A DNA stretch of 64,000 bases from an uncultured Candidatus Saccharibacteria bacterium. GTDB taxonomy: Bacteria > Patescibacteriota > Saccharimonadia > Saccharimonadales > Saccharimonadaceae. The notes beneath the pieces were generated by a model that saw nothing but the letters and a program-made list of their open reading frames with translations, was not told where the DNA came from and did no database searches. The stretch lies in NCBI GenBank assembly GCA_963456375.1, contig CAUOLH010000005.1, positions 5,912 to 69,911 of the forward strand, in the 5' to 3' direction. Positions 15,680 through 61,719 of this stretch are shown in pieces. Position 1 is the first letter of the stretch. Each line of letters begins with the position of its first letter. Both the position numbers and the translations under genes were made by a program.

Positions 15680-17218
15680 ATGAGTCAGGCTCTGTACCGA
15701 AAGTACCGCAGCCGCAGCTTAGATGAGGTGTTGGGACAAGATCACGTGACCAACATTTTACGCCGAGCCTTGGAGCAGGGGAAAATCGCCCATGCGTATT
15801 TGCTGACGGGCCCGCGCGGCGTAGGAAAAACATCGGTGGCACGAATTTTGGCGCATGAGATCAATCAATTGCCGTACGACGAGGACGCCTCGCACCTGGA
15901 CATCATTGAGATTGATGCCGCCAGCAACAACGGTGTCGACGACATTCGGGCATTACGTGAAAAAGCGCAAGTGGCGCCCGTTTCCGCACCAAAAAAGATT
16001 TACATCATCGACGAAGTCCACATGTTGTCCAAGCCTGCCTTTAACGCGCTGTTAAAGACGCTGGAGGAGCCGCCAGCGCACGTGGTATTTATCCTGGCGA
16101 CCACCGACGCCGACAAGTTGCCAGCCACCATTCTCAGCCGCGTCCAGCAATTTTTCTTCCGTCCCATCCCAGTCGATATCATGGCGCACCAGCTGATGAC
16201 TATCGCCGAGAAAGAGGGCTTTACTATTGAGGCAGACGCTGCTCGGCTGATCGCTGAGCGTTCGCGCGGCGGCTTTCGCGACGGCATCAGCATGCTGGAT
16301 CAACTGTCGGCATTAGCCAGCGCTGATAAGCCGCTAAGCGCGTCGGACGTTGCCCAGTACCTGGGGCTGAGCGCTACTGAGACGCTGGAGAACCTGCTGG
16401 AATTGTATCAGCAGCACGACGCGCCTGAGGCGCTGAACCTGCTGGGCGAGCTGGAGCAAGCCGGTACTGATCCGGTCGTCCTATCTCATCAATTATTATC
16501 ACTGCTGCGAGCACGCTTACATCAGCGGCCAGAGTTAATTACATTGGTCAAGCAGCTAATTGAAGTCGACCGCCATCCGCATCCAGATTTGAAATTATTG
16601 ACGATATTTATGGATGGTGCTGGAGGTGTAGTTCATAAATCGTCCGAGGCCGCACCCACGTCGACTGCGAGCCCGACTGCCGCGATCAAACCGCCAGTAG
16701 CTATTTCCAAATCGCCAGCAGAAAAACCAAAGCCACCAGTAGCTACTTCAGAAGCGCCAGCCCCAGCCGCTCAACCAGCAGAAAATTCACAAAAAACCAT
16801 CCCGAAACAGGAGCAAACTAACGACTCTGCGGATAAAACGGCAGCAGACGCCACCCCGGCAGGCAATCAACCAGCACCAGACAGCCCACCAGACTCCACC
16901 GCCACAGACATCGACTGGGATAAAATCATCGCCCTGGCCAAAGAGCAGTCGTTCGCTATTGCGACATTGTTGCAAAAGTGCAGTTGGCGGCGGGATGGCA
17001 ATACCTTGACCCTGTACGTCGGCAATGCTTTCGCTAAAAAGAAGCTAGATAATGCGAAAAATCGCCCGCTTATTGCGACAATTGTGCAACAAGTCACCGG
17101 CACTGAACTGGATATTGCGACAATCGGACAAAAAGCCCCGCCCAAAGACGCCGAGCTTGCGAAGATTGCCGAGCTAATGGGCGGCGGCGAAGAAGTTAAC
17201 CTGGAGGAATTATCATGA
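15680..17218 (+). CDS. dnaX: DNA polymerase III gamma/tau subunit
   Basis: LYRKYR, GPRGVGKT, EIDAASN, DEVHML, NALLKTLEEPP; P/A-rich linker. Confidence 0.97.
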   Translation: MSQALYRKYRSRSLDEVLGQDHVTNILRRALEQGKIAHAYLLTGPRGVGKTSVARILAHEINQLPYDEDASHLDIIEIDAASNNGVDDIRALREKAQVAPVSAPKKIYIIDEVHMLSKPAFNALLKTLEEPPAHVVFILATTDADKLPATILSRVQQFFFRPIPVDIMAHQLMTIAEKEGFTIEADAARLIAERSRGGFRDGISMLDQLSALASADKPLSASDVAQYLGLSATETLENLLELYQQHDAPEALNLLGELEQAGTDPVVLSHQLLSLLRARLHQRPELITLVKQLIEVDRHPHPDLKLLTIFMDGAGGVVHKSSEAAPTSTASPTAAIKPPVAISKSPAEKPKPPVATSEAPAPAAQPAENSQKTIPKQEQTNDSADKTAADATPAGNQPAPDSPPDSTATDIDWDKIIALAKEQSFAIATLLQKCSWRRDGNTLTLYVGNAFAKKKLDNAKNRPLIATIVQQVTGTELDIATIGQKAPPKDAELAKIAELMGGGEEVNLEELS

Positions 17219-42083: not shown

Positions 42084-43682
42084 ATGAGACGGCAGATTTT
42101 TGAGACGCTGACACTGGAGAAGATCGTTGGCGGCGGGCAAGCATTAGGAACGCTGGCCGATGGCCGCAAATGTTTCGTATGGGGCGGACTGCCCGGCGAG
42201 ACGGTTACTGTCCGCATTACCAAAAAGAAATCGCACTTCATCGAGGCGATTGTCGAGGAGGTGATCTCGCCAAGCCCCGACCGTATCCAGCCGCGCGATC
42301 CGGATAGTTATCTTTCGACCAGTCCTTGGCAGATTGTGCCGCTCGAGATAGAGCAGGCGTGCAAAAGGCAATTGATCGACGACGCCTTTACGCTGCACAA
42401 TGTTGCATTACCGGCAGCGATTGATATTTATTGCAACAATGTTGCATATGGTTATCGCAACAAAGTTGAATTTAGCTGGTATAGTGAATCAGTAGTGTCT
42501 AAAGAGGTATCTAAGAAAAAATCTGAGCCGGCTTTAGCGAGTCCCGGATCATTTTCTGATGATACCCGAAGGATAGATAATGGTAGCAATCGTGAGAGAC
42601 AATCTGGCGATACACTTGACTTGGCATTTTTCCGCCGCGGCAGCAAGGGTAAGATTGTCGTCGATGGCACAAGTTTGGCACGCCCAGAAATCAACAACTT
42701 GGCGCGGGCGATCCGTGATTTACTGCGCCATAAACGCGTCGCGGCTCGCCAACTCAAGACCTTGCTCGTCCGCTGCGATCAGTCGGGGAGTTGCGTCTGG
42801 CAACTATATATCAAGGATCGCTTGCCCGAAATAATTACCGCTAATGAAGCCGCCACGCTGCCGGCTCAGGGCGGGGAAATTATCTATTCCGATCCGCGTT
42901 CGCCAGCCAGCCGCATCACCGAGCGCTTGGTGTGTTTCGGCAACACCACCCTGACCGACACCATCCTTGGCGTGCCGTTCCGCTACGCCTGCGAAAGCTT
43001 TTTCCAAGTCAATACCCCGGTTTACGAGCAGGCACTGCGCGATATGAAGGAGTGGGTGCCGCGCGATTGCAATAGCCAACACTCGGGTCGGCAGCTCGAG
43101 AACCACCAGAAAAAACCTGAACAGCACGGAACAAACAGTCAGCACGGCTCGTCAAACTCTTTTTCTGAAGGCTTTGCCTTTCCGGCGAGTGTGCGCCAAG
43201 AGCGCCAACTGATTCAGTTAGCGGCGCGCCGGCCTGAAGAGAAAGGTGTTTGTGAGACGGGCGAGCCAACCCTTGATTTCTACGCTGGCGTCGGCACCAT
43301 TGGCCTGACCATTGGCGGCGGCAACGTCACGCTGGTGGAAATCAACGCCGACGCTGTCCGCGAAATGCAGTGCAACATCACTGAGCTTGGCCGCACCGAC
43401 GCCCGCGCTGTCCTCGCTCCCAGCGAACAAGCCCTCGACCATATTACAGGCAAGGAAATCGTCATCGTTGATCCGCCGCGCGCCGGCCTACATCCCGACG
43501 TTATTGCAACATTGTTGCAAAAACTGCCGCCGCGCATCATTTATCTCAGTTGTAATCCCGTCACCCAAGCTCGCGACGTCGCCTTACTCCAACAAAACTA
43601 CCGAATAGTCCACCACCGCGGCTATAATTTTTTCCCGAGAACGCCGCATATTGAACACTTGGTTATCCTTGGTAAAAAGTAA
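42084..43682 (+). CDS. 23S rRNA (uracil-5)-methyltransferase, RlmD/TrmA family, with two in-frame insertions
   Basis: TRAM-like N-terminus, YRNK, SFFQVN, LDFYAGVGTIG, VDPPRAG, YLSCNP, FFPRTPHIE. Confidence 0.92.
   Translation: MRRQIFETLTLEKIVGGGQALGTLADGRKCFVWGGLPGETVTVRITKKKSHFIEAIVEEVISPSPDRIQPRDPDSYLSTSPWQIVPLEIEQACKRQLIDDAFTLHNVALPAAIDIYCNNVAYGYRNKVEFSWYSESVVSKEVSKKKSEPALASPGSFSDDTRRIDNGSNRERQSGDTLDLAFFRRGSKGKIVVDGTSLARPEINNLARAIRDLLRHKRVAARQLKTLLVRCDQSGSCVWQLYIKDRLPEIITANEAATLPAQGGEIIYSDPRSPASRITERLVCFGNTTLTDTILGVPFRYACESFFQVNTPVYEQALRDMKEWVPRDCNSQHSGRQLENHQKKPEQHGTNSQHGSSNSFSEGFAFPASVRQERQLIQLAARRPEEKGVCETGEPTLDFYAGVGTIGLTIGGGNVTLVEINADAVREMQCNITELGRTDARAVLAPSEQALDHITGKEIVIVDPPRAGLHPDVIATLLQKLPPRIIYLSCNPVTQARDVALLQQNYRIVHHRGYNFFPRTPHIEHLVILGKK
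43146..43267. repeat. Degenerate palindromic in-frame insertion in rlmD-like gene
   Basis: GGCTCG..CGAGCC ends, imperfect CAAACTCTTTTTCT / AGAGAAAGGTGTTTG arms, internal AACTGA-T-TCAGTT hairpin. Confidence 0.5.
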
Positions 43683-44841: not shown

Positions 44842-47259
44842 TTACTTCCGATTTTCTCGGGTGATTAATTTTTTGCCAACACGGCGGGCTAGCCACCACT
44901 GAGCTAGGGCGACGATGACAACCACGGCGATACCCGGCCAGAGCAAGATAATATTTGGCACGGTAAAGTCAAAGAACTGCCTGAGTGGCCCGACACCAAA
45001 GCTCACCAAGGTTACAAGCAGCACGCCTGCCATATACAGCGTCCGCGCCAGGTGCGCCCGCTTATCCAAAATTACACCGAGCATCGGTCCGACCAAAAAC
45101 ACCAGATAAATCCCAAAGAACGTGGCTGTTAGGACGGTCATCGTCGCTGCCTCGGCCGCCTGATTTGGATGCAACGTCACGCCCGACCAATAGGTAAACG
45201 CCACGGTAAGACCCGTCAGCAGCGCGATCGGCGCCACCGCCTGCAAGGTATCGCGCCAGAAATGTGCCGGATTGACCCGATGGCGCGGACGCGGCGGAAA
45301 CAGCGTCCACATAATCGTCGGCATGGTCACCAGGAAAATATTGAGGAAGGTGATGTGCCGCGGCGCGTATGGATAATTCAGCCCGACCAGCATGGTGCTT
45401 AGTAGTAGCACCACGCCGTAAATAATCTTATGGAAGAACAGGGTAGCGATCACTTCGATCGCTTGCATGATCCGATTGCCCAGCTTCATGCCAATCGGCA
45501 GGGATGTAAACGAATTATTGAGTAAAATAATATCCGCCACCCGCCGCGACGCCGGAGCACCCGCGTACATCGCCACGCCGAGGTCGGATTTTTTCAGCGC
45601 CAGCGCGTCGTTGACGCCGTCGCCGACCATGCCAGTGAACTTGCCGGACTGCTTAAAATGAGCGATCAGCCGCTCTTTTTGCTCTGGCAGCACGCGGGCA
45701 AAAATTGTATGTTCATCAGCGGCCTTATTGAAGGCTTTGTCGCTGAGACCCGCCAGCGCCGAGCCGAGGATAGCCTTGTCCGGGTTGGCAATACCCGCCT
45801 GGCGCGCGATGTGCTGAACGGTGCGCGGATTATCGCCGGAAATCACGCGAATGACCACGCCTTGCTCCTGGAGGAACTTGACCGTGTCAATCACACCGTC
45901 GCGCAGGGAATTACGCAAAATCACCGCGCCAATCGCCCGCCCAGAGCCGTCCGGCAGATCCTTGAGTTTCACTGTTTCATCATCAAACTCCGCCAGCATC
46001 AGCACCCGTAGACCGCTGTCCGCCCATTCGTCCAGCTGGCGCTGCGTCATAGCGTCAACCGGCGCTAACTTGGCCACAAACTCCGGCGCCCCCATCATCA
46101 ATGTCCGCACCGCACCGTCGACCTTGGCCCGGACGCCCGCCATCTTGCGCGCCGAAGAAAAGGCCATTACCTCGATGATCTCCGCGTGCTTAGGCGGCGT
46201 GATTTCCGCTAGGATCGCTTGCCCGGTAATATTGCCGCCGCTGGTTTCATGGGCAATGAGGGCGGCTAGCTCGGCAACGTCCGAAGCAGCTTCAGATAAT
46301 TTCATCTCCGAAAATCTACGCGCTGGGCTGCCCGCGGCCGCTTGGGCTGCGGATTTTTCCGAGGTATCCGTGATCGAATTTGCCGATATCATCTCATCAA
46401 ACGCCACCACCCGCTCCAGCGTCACCTCGTCGCTGGTCAGCGTGCCAGTCTTGTCCACCGCCAACAGATTGAGCAGCGCCATCGCCTCAATCGCCGCCAA
46501 TTTCTGCGGCAACACCTTGGCCTGCGCCAGCCGCAGCGAGCCGAACGCCAGCAGCAGGGAACTAGCCAGCAGCAGCCCCTCCGGCACCACCGTTACCGCC
46601 GCCGAGGTAATCGTCTTGAGGATAATCACCACATTATCGCCCGACAAATAATACACGGTAAAGATCAGCGCCGCCAGCACAATCGCGCCGTATGTCAAGA
46701 AGGAAATCGCTCGCCAAATCGCTCGCTGCAATGGCGTCAGCTCTGGCTTGTAGCGTTTCAGGACTTGGCTGATGGCGCCAGCTTTCGTTTGGTCGCCGAC
46801 CGCCGTGACCCGCGCCGTGCCTTCGCCTGCCAACACCGTAGTTGCCGCCAGCACCGTGTCGCCAACCGCTTTCTCAATCGCCGCCGACTCGCCAGTGAGC
46901 ATACTTTCATTGAGCTCCAAGCCCTTCGACACCATCACTGTCGCGTCCGCCGGCAGCTCATCACCAGCCCGTAGGATAATCTCATCGCCCACCACCAGCG
47001 AATCATATGGCACCTCCACCGCCTGGCCGTCACGCAGTACCCGCGCCCTGGGCGCACTCATCAGCTCCAGCCGGTGCAGCACCCGCTTGGCACGAATTTC
47101 CTGAACGATGCCAATCAGCGAATTGACCACGATCACCACCGAAATAAACCAAGCATCCCGGTACTCGCGGACATAAATCAGCGCCCCGGCCAGCAGGAAA
47201 ATCGCCAGCACAATCGGCGACAGTAAATTTCTCTTGATAATATCCAGATAATCTTGCAT
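44842..47259 (-). CDS. Cation-transporting P-type ATPase (CtpE-like)
   Basis: TGES, VPEGL, DKTGTLT, MGAPE, SGDN, GDGVND. Confidence 0.96.
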   Translation of the reverse strand: MQDYLDIIKRNLLSPIVLAIFLLAGALIYVREYRDAWFISVVIVVNSLIGIVQEIRAKRVLHRLELMSAPRARVLRDGQAVEVPYDSLVVGDEIILRAGDELPADATVMVSKGLELNESMLTGESAAIEKAVGDTVLAATTVLAGEGTARVTAVGDQTKAGAISQVLKRYKPELTPLQRAIWRAISFLTYGAIVLAALIFTVYYLSGDNVVIILKTITSAAVTVVPEGLLLASSLLLAFGSLRLAQAKVLPQKLAAIEAMALLNLLAVDKTGTLTSDEVTLERVVAFDEMISANSITDTSEKSAAQAAAGSPARRFSEMKLSEAASDVAELAALIAHETSGGNITGQAILAEITPPKHAEIIEVMAFSSARKMAGVRAKVDGAVRTLMMGAPEFVAKLAPVDAMTQRQLDEWADSGLRVLMLAEFDDETVKLKDLPDGSGRAIGAVILRNSLRDGVIDTVKFLQEQGVVIRVISGDNPRTVQHIARQAGIANPDKAILGSALAGLSDKAFNKAADEHTIFARVLPEQKERLIAHFKQSGKFTGMVGDGVNDALALKKSDLGVAMYAGAPASRRVADIILLNNSFTSLPIGMKLGNRIMQAIEVIATLFFHKIIYGVVLLLSTMLVGLNYPYAPRHITFLNIFLVTMPTIMWTLFPPRPRHRVNPAHFWRDTLQAVAPIALLTGLTVAFTYWSGVTLHPNQAAEAATMTVLTATFFGIYLVFLVGPMLGVILDKRAHLARTLYMAGVLLVTLVSFGVGPLRQFFDFTVPNIILLWPGIAVVVIVALAQWWLARRVGKKLITRENRK
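46271..46386. repeat. Palindromic element inserted in frame in P-type ATPase
   Basis: Core CGCGCTGGGC..GCTTGGGCTGC (46319-46350) resembles the uvrD element core; imperfect arms 46304-46316/46352-46365; outer TCGGCAA/TTGCCGA. Confidence 0.65.
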
Positions 47260-50189: not shown

Positions 50190-53100
50190 ATGGATTTTCA
50201 CACTCGCTACGCCAAACTGAACGCCAATCAGCGCCAGGCAGTTGACTACATTCACGGCTCGCTCCTAGTGATCGCCGGGCCGGGCACGGGCAAGACCGAG
50301 CTGCTGAGCATGCGCACCGCCCAGATTCTGCGCCAAACCGACACGCTGCCGGATAGTATTTTGTGCCTGACGTTTACCGAGAGCGGTGCTGCCAACATGC
50401 GCCAGCGCCTGCGCCAGATTATCGGCGAGGATGCGTATAAAATCGCCATTCACACCTTTCACAGCTTCGGCATGGAGATTATCAATCAGCACCGGGAATA
50501 TTTTTTTCACGGCGCTGATAGCCAGCCGGCGGACGAGCTGACGCAGCACCAAATCGTGACGGGGATCCTGGAGGGGCTTGATTGGCGTAATCCGCTGAGC
50601 GTTAAAAACAACGGTAAATTCGTCTACACCAGCGAGCTGATCCGAGTCATTTCCGAGTTCAAGCAGAGCGGCCTCACGCCGGCGGAACTGCGGGCGATTA
50701 CGGCGGATAATCAGCGCGCTATCGCCGACATTACCGCTGACATCCAGCAAGTGTTTGCGAACAAAATTTCTAAAAAAACCATCGAGTTATTTGCGCCGCT
50801 GGCAGAGAACATTGCCAAGAGAGTCGGCGAGGGAAATTCTGCGAAAACCCGCGGAGGAGGCACTACAGAGCTTTCTAAAAATGCTGCCAATTCAGCACTG
50901 CATCACGCCGAACCGTCCGCCAATCTACCGTCCTCCATCACCCCGTACGCTCAGGTTCTGGCGCTCAGTATCGCCCACGCCACCCAAGAAGCGATCGACA
51001 CCAACTCCACCAAACCGCTAACCGCCTGGAAAAACAAATGGTGCGAAAAGAACGCCGCTGGTGAATTCGTCCTGAAGGATTTTACCGCCAGCGAGAAACT
51101 ATCCGCCGCCATTGACGTCTACGAAGCTTACGGCAACGTGCTGGCCGAGCGCTCGCTATTTGACTACGACGATATGATTTTGTCCGTCATTCAAGCCTGC
51201 GAAGCCCACCCGGAACTGCGCGCCAACCTACAAGAGCAATATCAATTCATCATGGTCGACGAGTTTCAGGATACCAACTTGGCGCAGTTGCGGCTGCTGT
51301 TTAATCTGACTGACGATGAGGACAATCCCAACATCATGGCGGTCGGCGACGACGACCAGGCGATTTTCAGCTTTCAAGGCGCGGACGTTGGCAATATTCA
51401 GCGCTTCCGCCAGCACTATCACGACCCGAGAATCATCGTGCTGACGGACAATTACCGCTCGGCGGCCGACATCCTGACGGCGGCGCGCGGGGTGATTACC
51501 CAAGGGACGGATCGCCTGGAGAATACCATTGACGGCTTGTCAAAGCAATTGACCGCGCACGCGTCTGGTAGCGGCGCGCAGGTTGAAATCCAGGAATTTA
51601 CCTCGGTAAGCGAGGAGCGGGCAGGAGTGGCTCAGCAAATTGCCGAGCTGATCAAATTCGGCGAAAACCCAGCGCACATCACCGTCATCGCCCGCCATCA
51701 CAAGGAGCTGATTGAGCTGCTGCCATACCTGTACCGCCAGAATCTGGCTGTCAATTACGAGCGGCACGACGATATTTTAGAGCAAGACATCATTCAGGCG
51801 CTGGACAAGCTAGCGCGGGTCGTCGTGGCGATTCATCAGAATAATCTCGATACCGCCAACAGTCTGCTGCCAGAGGTTATCGCTCATCCGGCATTCGGCT
51901 TTTCGGCGCTGGACATCTGGCAGCTCAGCCTCCACGCTTATAAAAATCGGCAGCTGTGGCTGGAGAGCATGCTGGCGAACAGCACCTTTCAGCCGTTTGG
52001 CGAGTGGCTACTAGAGCGGGCGAAGGACGTACCGAATCTGCCGCTGGAGGAGCAGTTGGACAAGTTGTTGGGGCTGGAAGCCGGAACTATCCCTATCGAC
52101 TCCTCTTTTCGCGCCGGGCGTCTGGGGACGCTCGGGCTGCAATCGCTGTACGGAGTCGATAGGGATAGTTCCGGCACTCACTCTGGCAGGGAATTCTTGC
52201 AATCAGCCGGCGAAGAGCCTTTGCTGGGACTCCGTACAGCGATTGCAGCCCGAGCGTCCCCAGACGCCCGGCGCGAAAAGAGGAGTCCTAGTAAAGGCTC
52301 TTCGCTTAATTCTCTCGCCACCCACTACTTCTCGCCAGAAGCCCTCGCTCAAAACCCCGATGCCTACCTGACCACGCTCGAGAGCCTGCGCACGCTGCGC
52401 CAAAAATTACGCGACCGCGCTACCGACGAAATCCCGACGCTGGCAGACTTTTTAGAGTTCATCGACCTACACCGCTCGACCAAAACCCGCCTGACACACA
52501 TCCGCCCCCAGGCCAGCACCCTCGGCGGCGCCATCAACCTGATGACCGCCCACAAATCCAAGGGCCTAGAGTTCCCGCATGTCTTCGTCATCGGGGCAAT
52601 CGACAGCGCCTGGGGCGAGAAAGTCCGCTCGCGCTCGCGGCTGATTCGCTATCCCGCCAACCTCCAACTCCAGCCCGCCGGCGCCAGCTACGACGAGCGA
52701 CTACGGCTATTTTTCGTAGCGATGACCCGCGCCAAAACCACCTTGACCATGACCTATTCCCAGACCAACGACGCCGGCAGCGACATCATGATCGCCAGCT
52801 TCCTGACCGACCACAAGCCAACGATTATCCCCGCCGCCGATACGCCCGCGGCGCAACTGACCGTGGCGCACACCGACTGGAGCACGCGGCTGAGCGCGCC
52901 GATTACCGCGGATCTCAAGGATGTGCTGGCGCCGACATTCGAAACCTACAAACTTTCCATTACGCATCTCAATAATTTCCTCGACGTCTCGCGTGGCGGA
53001 CCGCAGAACTTTTTGTTGAATAATCTGCTGCGTTTTCCGTCCGCCAAAAGCCCCGCCGCCAGCTATGGTACCGCCATTCACGCCAGTCTCCAGCAGCTGC

Positions 53101-53753
53101 ACAACCTGCTAGGCGCTGACCGCCGCCTGCCGCCTACCGAGCGCATTCTCCAATATTTCCGCACATCGCTCGAGGCCCAGCACCTGCTGTCCGACGACTT
53201 TGAACTATATATAGACAAAGGCACGGCGGCGCTGACGGCGTTTCTGGACGCCAAATCGTCCGAGTTTCATGACACCGAGCTCGCAGAACTCGATTTCGCT
53301 CACCAAGGCGTCGTCGTTGGCGGCGCCCGCCTGACCGGCAAGCTGGACGTCGCCGACATTGATAAGCATAATAAAACCATCTTCGTGACCGATTACAAGA
53401 CCGGCAAGCCGTCGCACTCCTGGAAGGGCATATCTGACTATGAAAAAATCAAGCTTCACAAATACCGCCAGCAGCTGATGTTTTATCAACTCTTGGTCAC
53501 GTCATCACGCGATTATGGCAATTTCACCTTCACCGGCGCCCGCCTGCAATTCGTCGAGCCAGATATGAAAACCGGCGACATCCTCAGCCTGGAGGACACA
53601 TTCTCTAGGGAAGAATTGGCTGAATTCGCCCGGCTGATCGGCATCGTCTGGCGGAAAATCACCACCCTGGAACTGCCGGATATTTCTGGGTATTCCGCGG
53701 ATTATAAGGGGATGGTGCAGTTTGAGGAGGATTTGTTGACAGAGGTAGCGTAG
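50190..53753 (+). CDS. UvrD/REP helicase fused to C-terminal PD-(D/E)xK nuclease (AdnB/AddA-like)
   Basis: AGPGTGKT, VDEFQD, VGDDDQAIF, NYRS, TAHKSKGLEF, FVAMTRA; GKLD...DYKTG nuclease motif. Confidence 0.95.
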   Translation: MDFHTRYAKLNANQRQAVDYIHGSLLVIAGPGTGKTELLSMRTAQILRQTDTLPDSILCLTFTESGAANMRQRLRQIIGEDAYKIAIHTFHSFGMEIINQHREYFFHGADSQPADELTQHQIVTGILEGLDWRNPLSVKNNGKFVYTSELIRVISEFKQSGLTPAELRAITADNQRAIADITADIQQVFANKISKKTIELFAPLAENIAKRVGEGNSAKTRGGGTTELSKNAANSALHHAEPSANLPSSITPYAQVLALSIAHATQEAIDTNSTKPLTAWKNKWCEKNAAGEFVLKDFTASEKLSAAIDVYEAYGNVLAERSLFDYDDMILSVIQACEAHPELRANLQEQYQFIMVDEFQDTNLAQLRLLFNLTDDEDNPNIMAVGDDDQAIFSFQGADVGNIQRFRQHYHDPRIIVLTDNYRSAADILTAARGVITQGTDRLENTIDGLSKQLTAHASGSGAQVEIQEFTSVSEERAGVAQQIAELIKFGENPAHITVIARHHKELIELLPYLYRQNLAVNYERHDDILEQDIIQALDKLARVVVAIHQNNLDTANSLLPEVIAHPAFGFSALDIWQLSLHAYKNRQLWLESMLANSTFQPFGEWLLERAKDVPNLPLEEQLDKLLGLEAGTIPIDSSFRAGRLGTLGLQSLYGVDRDSSGTHSGREFLQSAGEEPLLGLRTAIAARASPDARREKRSPSKGSSLNSLATHYFSPEALAQNPDAYLTTLESLRTLRQKLRDRATDEIPTLADFLEFIDLHRSTKTRLTHIRPQASTLGGAINLMTAHKSKGLEFPHVFVIGAIDSAWGEKVRSRSRLIRYPANLQLQPAGASYDERLRLFFVAMTRAKTTLTMTYSQTNDAGSDIMIASFLTDHKPTIIPAADTPAAQLTVAHTDWSTRLSAPITADLKDVLAPTFETYKLSITHLNNFLDVSRGGPQNFLLNNLLRFPSAKSPAASYGTAIHASLQQLHNLLGADRRLPPTERILQYFRTSLEAQHLLSDDFELYIDKGTAALTAFLDAKSSEFHDTELAELDFAHQGVVVGGARLTGKLDVADIDKHNKTIFVTDYKTGKPSHSWKGISDYEKIKLHKYRQQLMFYQLLVTSSRDYGNFTFTGARLQFVEPDMKTGDILSLEDTFSREELAEFARLIGIVWRKITTLELPDISGYSADYKGMVQFEEDLLTEVA
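52080..52175. mobile_element. 96-bp palindromic element, copy A (in frame in uvrD-like gene)
   Basis: Perfect 24-bp inverted arms 52080-52103/52152-52175 around a 48-nt loop containing the CCGGGCGTC/GACGCTCGG hairpin. Confidence 0.85.
52210..52305. mobile_element. 96-bp palindromic element, copy B (inverted relative to A)
   Basis: 24-bp arms 52210-52233/52282-52305 with 2 G-T pairs; 48-nt loop is the exact reverse complement of the copy A loop. Confidence 0.85.
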
Positions 53754-54515: not shown

Positions 54516-55601
54516 ATGACATCATTTTGGGATAACCTGCCGCAGCCGTTTTTTGCTTTAGCACCGATGGAAGCCGTCACCGACGTGGTTTTTCGCCATG
54601 TCGTGAAGCAGGCGGGCACACCCGACGTGTTTTTCACCGAGTTTGCCAATGCCACGGGCTGGGTGCACGCCGGCGACAAGGCCATCGCTGGGCGACTCAT
54701 CAAAACCGACGATGAGCATCCGCTGGTCGCCCAAATCTGGGGTGGCGAGCCAGGTGATATGGAGCAATTTGCCGCTCACTGCACCAAGCTCGGCTTTGAT
54801 GGCATCGACATCAACATGGGCTGTCCCGCCAAATCCGCCATCAAAAGCGGGGGAGCGGCACTGATCCGCCGACCCGACGTGGCAGTCGCCGCCATCACCG
54901 CCGCTAAAACCGCTGAGCTACCGGTCAGTGTGAAAACCAGGCTGGGCTATTCACGCGTTGACGAGTGGAAAGAATGGCTGGGCACACTACTGGCACAGGA
55001 CCTCGCCAACCTAACCATCCACCTCCGCACCAAAAAGGAGATGAGCAAAGTCCCAGCGCATTACGAGCTCATCGACGACATCATCAAACTACGCGATGAA
55101 ATCGCCCCACAAACTCTCTTGACTATCAACGGCGATATCCGCAACCGAACCCATGGTCTAGAGCTAGTCCGTCAACATCCCGGCATCAACGGCGTCATGA
55201 TCGGGCGGGGGATTTTTAGCGATCCGTTTTGCTTTGTCGGAAGCAAGGTGAGCGAAGCATCTTCTGATGAGAAGACTGTGGATTGTTCGCGAATAGCGGA
55301 CAATCCAGCCGAACGCTCGCGCCAAATCTCCAGTGGAGATTTAAGCGAAAAGTGTGCTTCGAATCAGAACGGTGCGCCGTTCGCCAATGCTTTAGAACAC
55401 AAATCTGAACTAATCGCCTTATTACACTACCACCTTGATCTCTTCGACCACTACCAACCAACCCTCGGCCGCCCCTACGAAACCCTGAAACGCTTCTTCA
55501 AAATCTACATTCGCGACTTCGACGGCGCCAAAGAACTGCGCGAGAAGCTAATGCACACTAAAAACACCAGCGAAGTCCGCCAGATACTTGAAAAAATATA
55601 A
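54516..55601 (+). CDS. dus: tRNA-dihydrouridine synthase with in-frame insertion
   Basis: LAPME..TD, IDINMGCP, SVKTRLG, IH.RT, NGDI, MIGRG. Confidence 0.96.
   Translation: MTSFWDNLPQPFFALAPMEAVTDVVFRHVVKQAGTPDVFFTEFANATGWVHAGDKAIAGRLIKTDDEHPLVAQIWGGEPGDMEQFAAHCTKLGFDGIDINMGCPAKSAIKSGGAALIRRPDVAVAAITAAKTAELPVSVKTRLGYSRVDEWKEWLGTLLAQDLANLTIHLRTKKEMSKVPAHYELIDDIIKLRDEIAPQTLLTINGDIRNRTHGLELVRQHPGINGVMIGRGIFSDPFCFVGSKVSEASSDEKTVDCSRIADNPAERSRQISSGDLSEKCASNQNGAPFANALEHKSELIALLHYHLDLFDHYQPTLGRPYETLKRFFKIYIRDFDGAKELREKLMHTKNTSEVRQILEKI
55253..55382. repeat. Multi-hairpin in-frame insertion in dus
   Basis: CGAAGCA/TGCTTCG (55253/55361) enclosing hairpins 55279-55307 and 55324-55342; third hairpin 55367-55382. 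Confidence 0.65.
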
Positions 55602-55700: not shown

Positions 55701-56060
55701 CTAAGCTACTCCACGTTCCAGCTTCTTTAAACGATCCTCGTAATCATCAAGACGCGCGCTATGGCGATTCAGATCAGTACCAATAGCGTTAAGAATTTCA
55801 TTCTGGACTTCTTCATTCTCATCAAGGCGCTTATCTATACTATCAAGACGCTCGTTGATATCGTCAAAGCGCTTATCCATGCCATCAAGGCGCTTGTTGA
55901 TACTATCAAAACGCTTATCCATGCCATCAAGGCGCTTATCCGTGTTGTCAAGACGCCTGTTAATACCGTCAAAACGCTTATTTATCTCAGCAGTATGGCC
56001 GCTCAGCACTGATTCCATCAGCTGTTTTATGTCTGCCAAATCGTCGCTAGTCAAGCTCAT
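55701..56060 (-). CDS. Heptad-repeat coiled-coil protein
   Basis: R[FL]Dxx[DN]K repeated about 8 times; ATG 56060 is 6 nt after TATAAT. Confidence 0.85.
   Translation of the reverse strand: MSLTSDDLADIKQLMESVLSGHTAEINKRFDGINRRLDNTDKRLDGMDKRFDSINKRLDGMDKRFDDINERLDSIDKRLDENEEVQNEILNAIGTDLNRHSARLDDYEDRLKKLERGVA
55820..55985. repeat. Degenerate 21-bp tandem coding repeat
   Basis: Recurring ATCAA[GA][GA]CGCTT[AG]T units at 21-bp period. Confidence 0.85.
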
Positions 56061-56145
56061 GCAAAAATTATAGCACGGCATAGTAACGGCACGCAAATCA
56101 ATTCTATCGCCGTCAAAACACAATTATAACGATAGCAATCCAGAA

Positions 56146-61173: not shown

Positions 61174-61719
61174 CTAGATTTTCTTCGCCCGCAAGTCGTT
61201 TAATTTCTTCAAAACCGTTGCGTCCAGCGTTGCAGTTGGCGTCCGTAGTTTGAAACCGCCGATGAGTGCTTGGTCAATTGATTCACGCAGTAACACAGTG
61301 ATGTCCTTAGTACTGTGGTCGCTCGGAACCTCCGCATCAAGATGTTCGACATGCTGAGCAGCGCGGTCGCTACCATCTGTTTCGGGTGCGCGGGCTTCGC
61401 TCCGGGCATCCTTTCTGGACGCTCGGGCTGCAGAGCGACCCTCCACAGATGTCAGCGACTCCATACCCGAGTTAGATGATAGTAGCCGCTTAATTGCATC
61501 CTTTGTCGCCTCGCCCAGCGGCGTTGCGCTTTCCACCGTCGCCACAACTGTCCCGCGCTCAGCCAATTCCACCTCAATATCCCGCGCCAACAATTCGACT
61601 TCGCGCTCATGCTTTTCATAAATCAAGAACCCGGCAATCTCTTCCAGCACCGCGTCATTACCCGCCAAAAGCTGCTCTGCTGCATACTTCGCCAGCTTTC
61701 GCCTGGACACCAGCCGCAT
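61174..61719 (-). CDS. atpH: ATP synthase delta subunit (short form) with ~55-aa in-frame insertion
   Basis: Operon position; VESATPL and ID.ALIGG..DATV motifs flanking a low-complexity insert. Confidence 0.88.
61366..61459. mobile_element. 94-bp palindromic element inserted in frame in atpH
   Basis: Arms GTCGCTACCATCTGT / ACAGATGTCAGCGAC; core TTCGCTCCGGGCATC..GACGCTCGGGCTGCA (61396-61432) matches the uvrD element core. Confidence 0.8.

Follow-up and report, generated by a model that had tools for sequence, protein, structure and literature searches.

An in-frame palindromic doublet in a Saccharibacteria UvrD-nuclease gene, the flipping of its core and a related repeat of the Saccharimonadales

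The palindromic block in the uvrD gene

The window, i.e. the whole stretch of 64,000 nucleotides of a Saccharibacteria genome (G000) that was analyzed, contains a helicase-nuclease gene interrupted by two neighboring hairpins. The following features were assigned:

50190..53753, + strand: host gene, fusion of a UvrD-type helicase and a PD-(D/E)XK nuclease, 1187 aa (ORF, domain search)
52080..52103, + strand: left arm of hairpin 1, its inner 6 bp in common with the core (complementarity count)
52098..52157, - strand: core copy 1, in the orientation (R) opposite to that of the commonest allele (reverse-complement and allele comparison)
52111..52137, - strand: bulged hairpin inside core 1, a homolog of hairpin 1 in the order-wide repeat described below
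52152..52175, + strand: right arm of hairpin 1, pairing with the left arm at 24/24 positions
52176..52209, + strand: in-frame spacer between hairpins 1 and 2
52210..52233, + strand: left arm of hairpin 2
52228..52287, + strand: core copy 2 (F), its reading frame differing from that of copy 1
52248..52274, + strand: inner bulged hairpin of core 2
52282..52305, + strand: right arm of hairpin 2, 22/24 complementary

An earlier note on this DNA, made from the letters alone, had described the central 60 bp of the hairpins as exact reverse complements. This was confirmed, as the two segments match at 100% over 60 nt and are separated by 70 nt. The note had also described two self-complementary hairpins of the type 24-48-24. 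Both enclose a loop of 48 nt, but only the arms of hairpin 1 pair completely (24/24), those of hairpin 2 imperfectly (22/24, with two G·T pairs). The outer 18 bp do differ between the copies as stated, the left arms being alike at 4 of 18 positions. The pattern GACTCC-(40-60)-GGAGTC was matched twice against 0.04 matches expected, a number that none of 100 shuffles reached. The spacer contains a short core-like piece which is used by the deletions of other strains.

The open reading frame is free of stops, as the earlier note had it, and the block makes up residues 631-706 of the protein. Empty-site orthologs exist: among 36 same-genus genomes, 12 were empty at this site and six filled. Measured against the 12 genomes with an empty site, the insert adds a net 201 nt or 67 aa, which corrects the previous figure of about 75 aa. 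It lies between segments aligning to PcrA 160-309 and PcrA 553-625. In SF1A helicases the segment between these matches is subdomain 2B, which is tolerant of change. To judge from the motif positions, the insert would thus be situated in the region of subdomain 2B, where the core is probably lodged in a tolerant loop.

As far as can be tested, the doublet does not seem to be an assembly artefact, since metagenome contigs of independent origin (L141 type) carry the same allele of copy 1 (arms, orientation and core variant all alike) and other genomes also contain doublets with both pairs of arms. The exact inverted pairing of the two cores was seen in the window only. A second variable insert was noticed in the N-terminal part of the same gene (window ~50820-50895), where nine genomes have 0-27 extra aa without strong folding.

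Copies of the core and their sites

Four clear copies of the core were found in the genome of the window, two in uvrD, one in atpH and one between rplJ and rplL. Besides the uvrD doublet, the window itself contains:

61386..61447, - strand: third core copy, in frame in atpH (ATP synthase delta); it flips between strains and the site is empty in two clade genomes
46304..46364, - strand: probable worn, short-armed core copy that keeps the frame of a P-type ATPase gene; the match is weak (E 0.58), corresponding to a 30-aa insert relative to genome G011

In relatives the core is also present upstream of rsmH, so that the clade has four fixed sites, uvrD, atpH, rplJ-rplL and rsmH. Up to five copies of the armed unit, which measures 96 bp, occur per genome, and 47 of 131 genus genomes hold one to five copies. 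Five more distant genomes carry the armed form in frame in cysS, dusB, a rluB-like gene, topA, a methyltransferase gene and the same uvrD loop, with its own arms at each site. These copies bear out the earlier view of a dispersed non-autonomous palindromic repeat, and they support the proposal that arms are regenerated around a fixed core.

The same note had called the element recently active, which is not supported by the distribution of the copies. All 58 true metagenome copies (80 loci fetched) were located at three known sites, uvrD (22), rplJ-L (21) and rsmH (15), atpH being largely left out by the search pattern, and no genus genome holds more than five copies. Among 80 fetched genome loci, 46 of the 48 from Saccharibacteria lie at the four sites. 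The clade's site set is static. Matches in organisms other than Saccharibacteria (32/80 genome loci, 22/80 metagenome loci) were set aside as chance, since the rest of the core was missing from them, and 25 further genome matches and at least 39 further metagenome matches stand outside these counts. A single match in viral contigs, situated in a coding region, was likewise judged to be chance.

A related repeat throughout the Saccharimonadales

A covariance model built from 39 cores (R1) gave weak matches in 23 of 150 other Saccharimonadales genomes. Most of these matches share one motif, made up of a leader rich in purines, the bulged hairpin known from the core and another hairpin. A second model (R2), derived from 22 of the R1 matches, was matched 606 times, in 98 of the 151 Saccharimonadales genomes searched and up to 25 times per genome; in these counts the training copies match by construction and at most 29 candidates were scored per genome. 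R2 scored both cores of the window at 22 bits (E 0.002). In a phylum-wide draw the repeat was detected in two of 151 genomes, both of which belong to the Saccharimonadales.

Of 74 order-wide copies inspected, only two overlap an ORF; the others lie between genes in both orientations. They are frequent in ribosomal-protein operons, in 23S-5S spacers and before tRNAs, and no gene family was enriched among the neighbors of the 74 copies. In the 23S-5S rRNA spacer, several copies are located inside what looks like the processing stem. Multiple copies, a mostly extragenic hairpin, covariation, both orientations and a patchy distribution are all features of REP-like sequences that this repeat shares. 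By model matching the core is shown to be an apparently derived, worn form of a Saccharimonadales-wide, two-hairpin, mostly intergenic REP-like repeat. The long outer arms are absent from the order-wide form (6.2 versus 5.9), so the transition from it to the armed form is not observed.

Searches of Rfam with sets of four and eight loci returned nothing on the element at E<=5, and no description of the repeat was found in the open-access literature searched. An apparently undescribed repeat is exposed in about two thirds of the sampled Saccharimonadales genomes.

Strong covariation in both hairpins, together with the preference for ribosomal-protein operons, 23S-5S spacers and tRNAs, could indicate a functional structured RNA involved in processing, stability or regulation, the arms of which would be kept by selection on mRNA folding. 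This explanation is distinctly unlikely. Between co-directed genes the repeat occurs in both orientations (28 versus 19 of the 74 copies), its presence is patchy, and the inner helix, which is 98% paired, has many two-sided but few one-sided (wobble) changes. Moreover, the arms of the clade's copies have no G·U preference, and a flip converts G·T to A·C without loss.

Orientation, reading frames and alleles

Both orientations of the core were found at all four clade sites. In the metagenome copies, uvrD revealed 15 F, 6 R and one FF, rplJ-L 8 F and 13 R, and rsmH 3 F and 12 R; for atpH the genome loci gave 7 F and 5 R. Two independent assemblies, i.e. two of the four runs compared, had opposite strands joined inside the arms. 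At uvrD, 39 of 41 loci spanned the site and represented 36 distinct alleles comprising one or two cores in either orientation as well as deletion forms. In these cultivable oral strains, for which dozens of genomes exist, empty, filled, flipped and deleted alleles are present side by side.

Thirty-five of the 36 uvrD alleles are in frame, although their net inserts range from 75 to 210 nt in nine length classes, whereas the lengths of intergenic inserts are not tied to multiples of three. The only frameshifted allele is a 130-nt collapse of a direct pair. As such a collapse removes 130 nt and thereby shifts the frame, this may be part of the reason why the doublet persists. The core is read in four frames at uvrD, one DNA segment thus being tolerated in four reading frames within a repair helicase. 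A single peptide frame (AARA...ARxE) recurs at several sites.

Among related uvrD proteins (119 parsed of the best 120), intact direct doublets constituted the commonest class (60/119) and the inverted pair did not occur (0/119); since full-length proteins had been selected, this survey is silent on the keeping of the frame. The inverted doublet of the window is a rare allele. The two cores of a doublet differ on average by 5.3 nt (11 doublets) and cores of different alleles by 5.7 nt, values which do not bear out a general conversion of the two cores of a doublet into each other. The complete identity of the window's cores therefore reflects local homogenization of a rare variant and not the typical state.

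The abundance of both orientations at four sites, and their scatter on a tree of the flanking protein with weak resolution (119 rows; 20 changes for R), might suggest a domesticated phase-variation switch in which an invertase would flip the core and thereby alternate the helicase peptide or the expression of rplL and rsmH. It is very improbable that such a switch is operating. Flipped uvrD alleles belong to a pair of fixed haplotypes, and wherever the flanks of rows are identical the orientation is the same, from which it appears that rare flips were spread by recombination; the pattern fits this better than a fast switch. The core is freely deleted or worn. Switches of the Hin/Fim type have conserved recombination sites and a dedicated recombinase, whereas the arms here are unrelated between sites, with common stretches of 4-6 bp at most and not even that at atpH. 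The serine resolvase domain (PF00239), the only resolvase class searched for, was absent from G000 and two further genomes (G029, G030).

Origin of the arms

More than one Watson-Crick pair type was observed at 22 of 93 arm positions. The arms of copy 1 have 3.4 mismatches with their own partner and 5.2 with the partner of another allele (permutation p 2e-4, a value that is overstated because the alleles are related), and four distinct perfect pairs exist among 21. For the arms of copy 2, concerted change was not significant in the same permutation comparison (p 0.18). On the coding strand, the arm mismatches comprise 25 G·T and 28 A·C (p 0.78), revealing no bias for a strand or for G·U. This tally was made in a fixed register; three cores with mixed arms were left out of it and rsmH and atpH are not part of it. 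Because the mismatches are neutral with respect to the strand, they argue for a process that would act at the DNA level.

The clearest test of where an arm comes from is provided by atpH, since two clade genomes are empty there; at uvrD, the divergence of the empty relatives is too great for the arms to be assigned to the host. In the 87-nt flipped insert of genome G010, 15 of 15 positions reproduce the upstream host codons in inverted form. The 87-nt flipped insert of locus L267 contains, at 13 of 13 positions, an inverted copy of its own, different upstream codons. In these two alleles the atpH arm is shown to repeat, in inverted form, codons that flank the insert in the same strain. The G029 allele did not match its own upstream flank, and two F alleles at atpH matched the downstream flank over 7 bp only. 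Inspection by eye revealed no direct target-site duplication at the atpH insert, the copy of the flank being inverted. Since host codons can be recognized as the source of an arm, the template-switch model set out below is directly testable.

Proposed mechanism and relation to known systems

The observations are best explained by a coding palindrome of the RPE kind; template switching at the DNA level would write its arms and invert its loop, selection would keep the frame and recombination would shuffle the alleles. We assign this reading a probability of roughly 0.7. Its starting point would be the core, homologous to the order-wide two-hairpin repeat and occupying unrelated sites. The core may have arrived long ago through an enzyme acting in trans that recognized hairpins in single strands and is now absent from the clade. 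An arm would then be formed as an inverted copy of flanking host sequence, as seen at atpH and presumably also at uvrD. Subsequently, template switching during replication probably caused the changes of the arms in step and the two orientations of the core with break points in the arms. The surviving alleles keep the frame, probably because selection on the translated protein removes the others, the peptide itself being near-neutral filler. Finally, recombination between strains may reshuffle a few flip, duplication and deletion alleles.

The element bears on the question of how such palindromes spread and how they stay palindromic while diverging. Neither the flipping of the core between strains nor its kinship with a repeat of the whole order had been recognized in the earlier note. 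What is new in the present analysis is the parent form found across the order, the arm at atpH that was copied from the host, a set of sites that is static and the occupation of the same sites by different families.

Homogenization of arms and inversion of spacers by template switching are documented for coding DNA (PMC8604942), and the same signatures for RNA genes (PMC8794818). According to these articles, one arm overwrites the other, stems extend from the flanks and loops invert, repeatedly and in coding DNA as well, which resembles the present case. What differs is that at least 48 bp are inverted here, rewriting at least 16 residues, and that the loop is a dispersed repeat. Since the spacer inversions reported for coding DNA in PMC8604942 comprise 2-5 bp, recombination of the RecA type between the arms would account for the flips equally well.

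The Rickettsia palindromic elements (RPEs), to which the block had been compared before, proved to be the right analogy in that palindromes lie in frame in unrelated housekeeping genes. As described in PMC10969869 and PMC3733652, RPEs are small palindromic repeats with several families per genome, inserted in frame in unrelated housekeeping genes of a reduced, host-dependent bacterium without an adjoining mobilizer. Their length of ~100-150 bp is close to the 96-bp units found here, and in-frame insertion together with empty orthologs was seen at uvrD and atpH as well as in cysS, dusB, the rluB-like gene, topA and the methyltransferase gene. Coding palindromes of this style are thereby extended to the Patescibacteria. 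By contrast, RPEs are described in these sources as encoding a conserved peptide, whereas four frames are used to read the present core, which can turn round at a site already occupied and whose arms differ by site and copy host DNA. Four proteins were compared with NCBIfam, which presumably includes RPE models, and no such model was among the matches at E<=0.1.

With REP and REPIN sequences, as portrayed in PMC3116915 and PMC3733652, the repeat has in common a GC-rich bulged hairpin, a mostly extragenic position, both orientations, compensatory change, mosaic clusters and some in-frame copies in DNA-repair genes. According to the same sources, REPINs have constant ends and a variable middle, while the element described here has a constant middle and variable ends. 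An unpaired GTAG or CGTC tag adjoining the hairpin, as in REPs, is missing, since the GTRG pattern was absent from all 84 copies and CGTC occurred only within the stem of some cores. A mechanism by RAYT and REPIN, named as an analogue in the earlier note, is not supported, as no Y1 transposase (Y1_Tnp) was found in the window's genome or in six filled relatives and the doublet is normally direct. An inverted doublet as a conserved moving unit, typical of the REPIN-RAYT system, was not seen in any of the 119 proteins, and neither the clade nor the surroundings of the repeat contained a RAYT. Unlike MITEs, the element has neither constant terminal inverted repeats, only 4-6 bp being constant, nor a direct target-site duplication. 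From comparisons of sequence, it appears that the element works like RPEs and REPs but is not a member of the RPE, REPIN-RAYT, SRM or MITE classes.

Candidate enzymes

The main alternative to template switching is that a hairpin-specific nuclease or transposase, either a small Ssn-like GIY-YIG protein or a RAYT, nicks existing hairpins and that fold-back synthesis copies the target in inverted form and swaps the cores. SsnA cuts single-stranded DNA near hairpin repeats (PMC11893778). The Ssn/SRM-NTS systems resemble our findings, in as much as hairpin repeats occur in small genomes that also contain stand-alone GIY-YIG genes; they differ in that the repeat studied here apparently does not lie on both sides of GIY-YIG genes and in that such genes are missing from the clade of the window. 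Stand-alone GIY-YIG genes of ~80-100 aa (L421-L450) are common in the Saccharimonadales, where the insertion point is often a tRNA, rnpB or 23S rRNA gene and the inserted gene is flanked by hairpins or target duplications of its own. Four of 30 small GIY-YIG loci had the order-wide repeat within 1.5 kb, on one side only, compared to 0.42 expected. These nearby loci sit in tRNA or rRNA contexts, and the two closest cases both adjoin tRNA genes, a context which the repeat uses anyway. Across genomes, the copy number of the repeat did not correlate with the number of GIY-YIG genes (rho 0.17, p 0.17; 63/151 genomes). The SRM consensus motif was absent from the window block and from all 84 copies, none of ten Y1_Tnp loci carried the order-wide repeat, and in the window's genome neither a stand-alone GIY-YIG nor a DUF559 gene was detected. 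A weak GIY-YIG match in G006 turned out not to be a gene. In view of these data, an enzyme of this kind is an unlikely cause.

SbcD and MutS were missing in all five genomes searched, filled and empty alike. Their loss might constitute a permissive background, but since empty-site relatives lack them as well it does not explain why this clade is loaded. Three segments of G000 (C10:26091-26704, C11:2-352 and C14:3507-4093), which we take from their motifs to be pieces of an IS1595-like transposase with short ends, had no link to the 60-bp core.

Other palindromic families and the reuse of sites

In 603 ORF pairs of G000 and the empty-site genome G011, insert segments of at least 10 aa numbered 46 in G000 and five in G011, some of them being pieces of one insert and many low-complexity linkers. 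Several of the extra inserts of G000 belong to other palindromic families. An ungapped genome-wide stem scan did not separate the genomes (17 stems in G000, 11 in G011). One such family was designated B:

55273..55358, + strand: palindromic family B, in frame in dusB; the site holds the 60-bp core in three other genomes
C20:2586, C3:11001, C3:46263, C5:72955 and C2:8107 of G000: family B copies elsewhere

Family B elements measure ~115-170 nt; the six copies lie in frame in dusB, rnhB-yraN, leuS, an ABC-F gene and topA, and one is intergenic. They come and go between strains and flip in frame in leuS, topA and the ABC-F gene; thus, flipping is not specific to the 60-bp core.

The dusB loop (window 54516-55601; L486-L505) contains at least five kinds of cassettes, as counted by eye, in 19 clade genomes, all in frame. 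The cassettes comprise 71-133 aa compared to 36, and one of them was observed either way round (G340, G381). The loop of the ABC-F gene has a mosaic structure, and the rsmH, topA and methyltransferase sites are likewise reused by different cores; the empty rsmH site of G011 is itself a short hairpin. This reuse would be expected from an enzyme that nicks existing hairpins, but a small number of tolerant loops would also give it. One might go further and imagine a self-modifying system of hairpin cassettes, in which an enzyme acting on single-stranded DNA, perhaps a stand-alone GIY-YIG nuclease, would target hairpin tips, copy the target as inverted arms and exchange cores. We consider this idea tentative and rather doubtful. 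If true, loops of essential proteins would be refilled, flipped and rewritten in several frames, amounting to a standing generator of new protein sequence.

Further inserts were noticed in the genome of the window. An RNA methyltransferase-like gene has palindromic inserts at window positions ~42500-42590 and 43146-43268, assigned to families E and C, each of which has a copy elsewhere in the genome. Upstream of rsmH (C2:29600-29760) a different hairpin element is found where most relatives carry the 60-bp core; its ends resemble the hairpins beside small GIY-YIG genes. Contig C8 contains an mnmA-like gene into which a long hairpin is inserted in frame (400-640; z -3.8) and an intergenic 31-bp stem enclosing two inner hairpins (16145-16249). 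An ileS-like gene (C2:127749-131681) has a 299-aa insert with phosphatase-like and Nudix-like segments, as judged by eye, which is absent from G011 and from a second copy of the gene on C22. Finally, a short gene with heptad tandem repeats of the LDxxDKR type (window 55701-56123) adjoins the ATP synthase operon.
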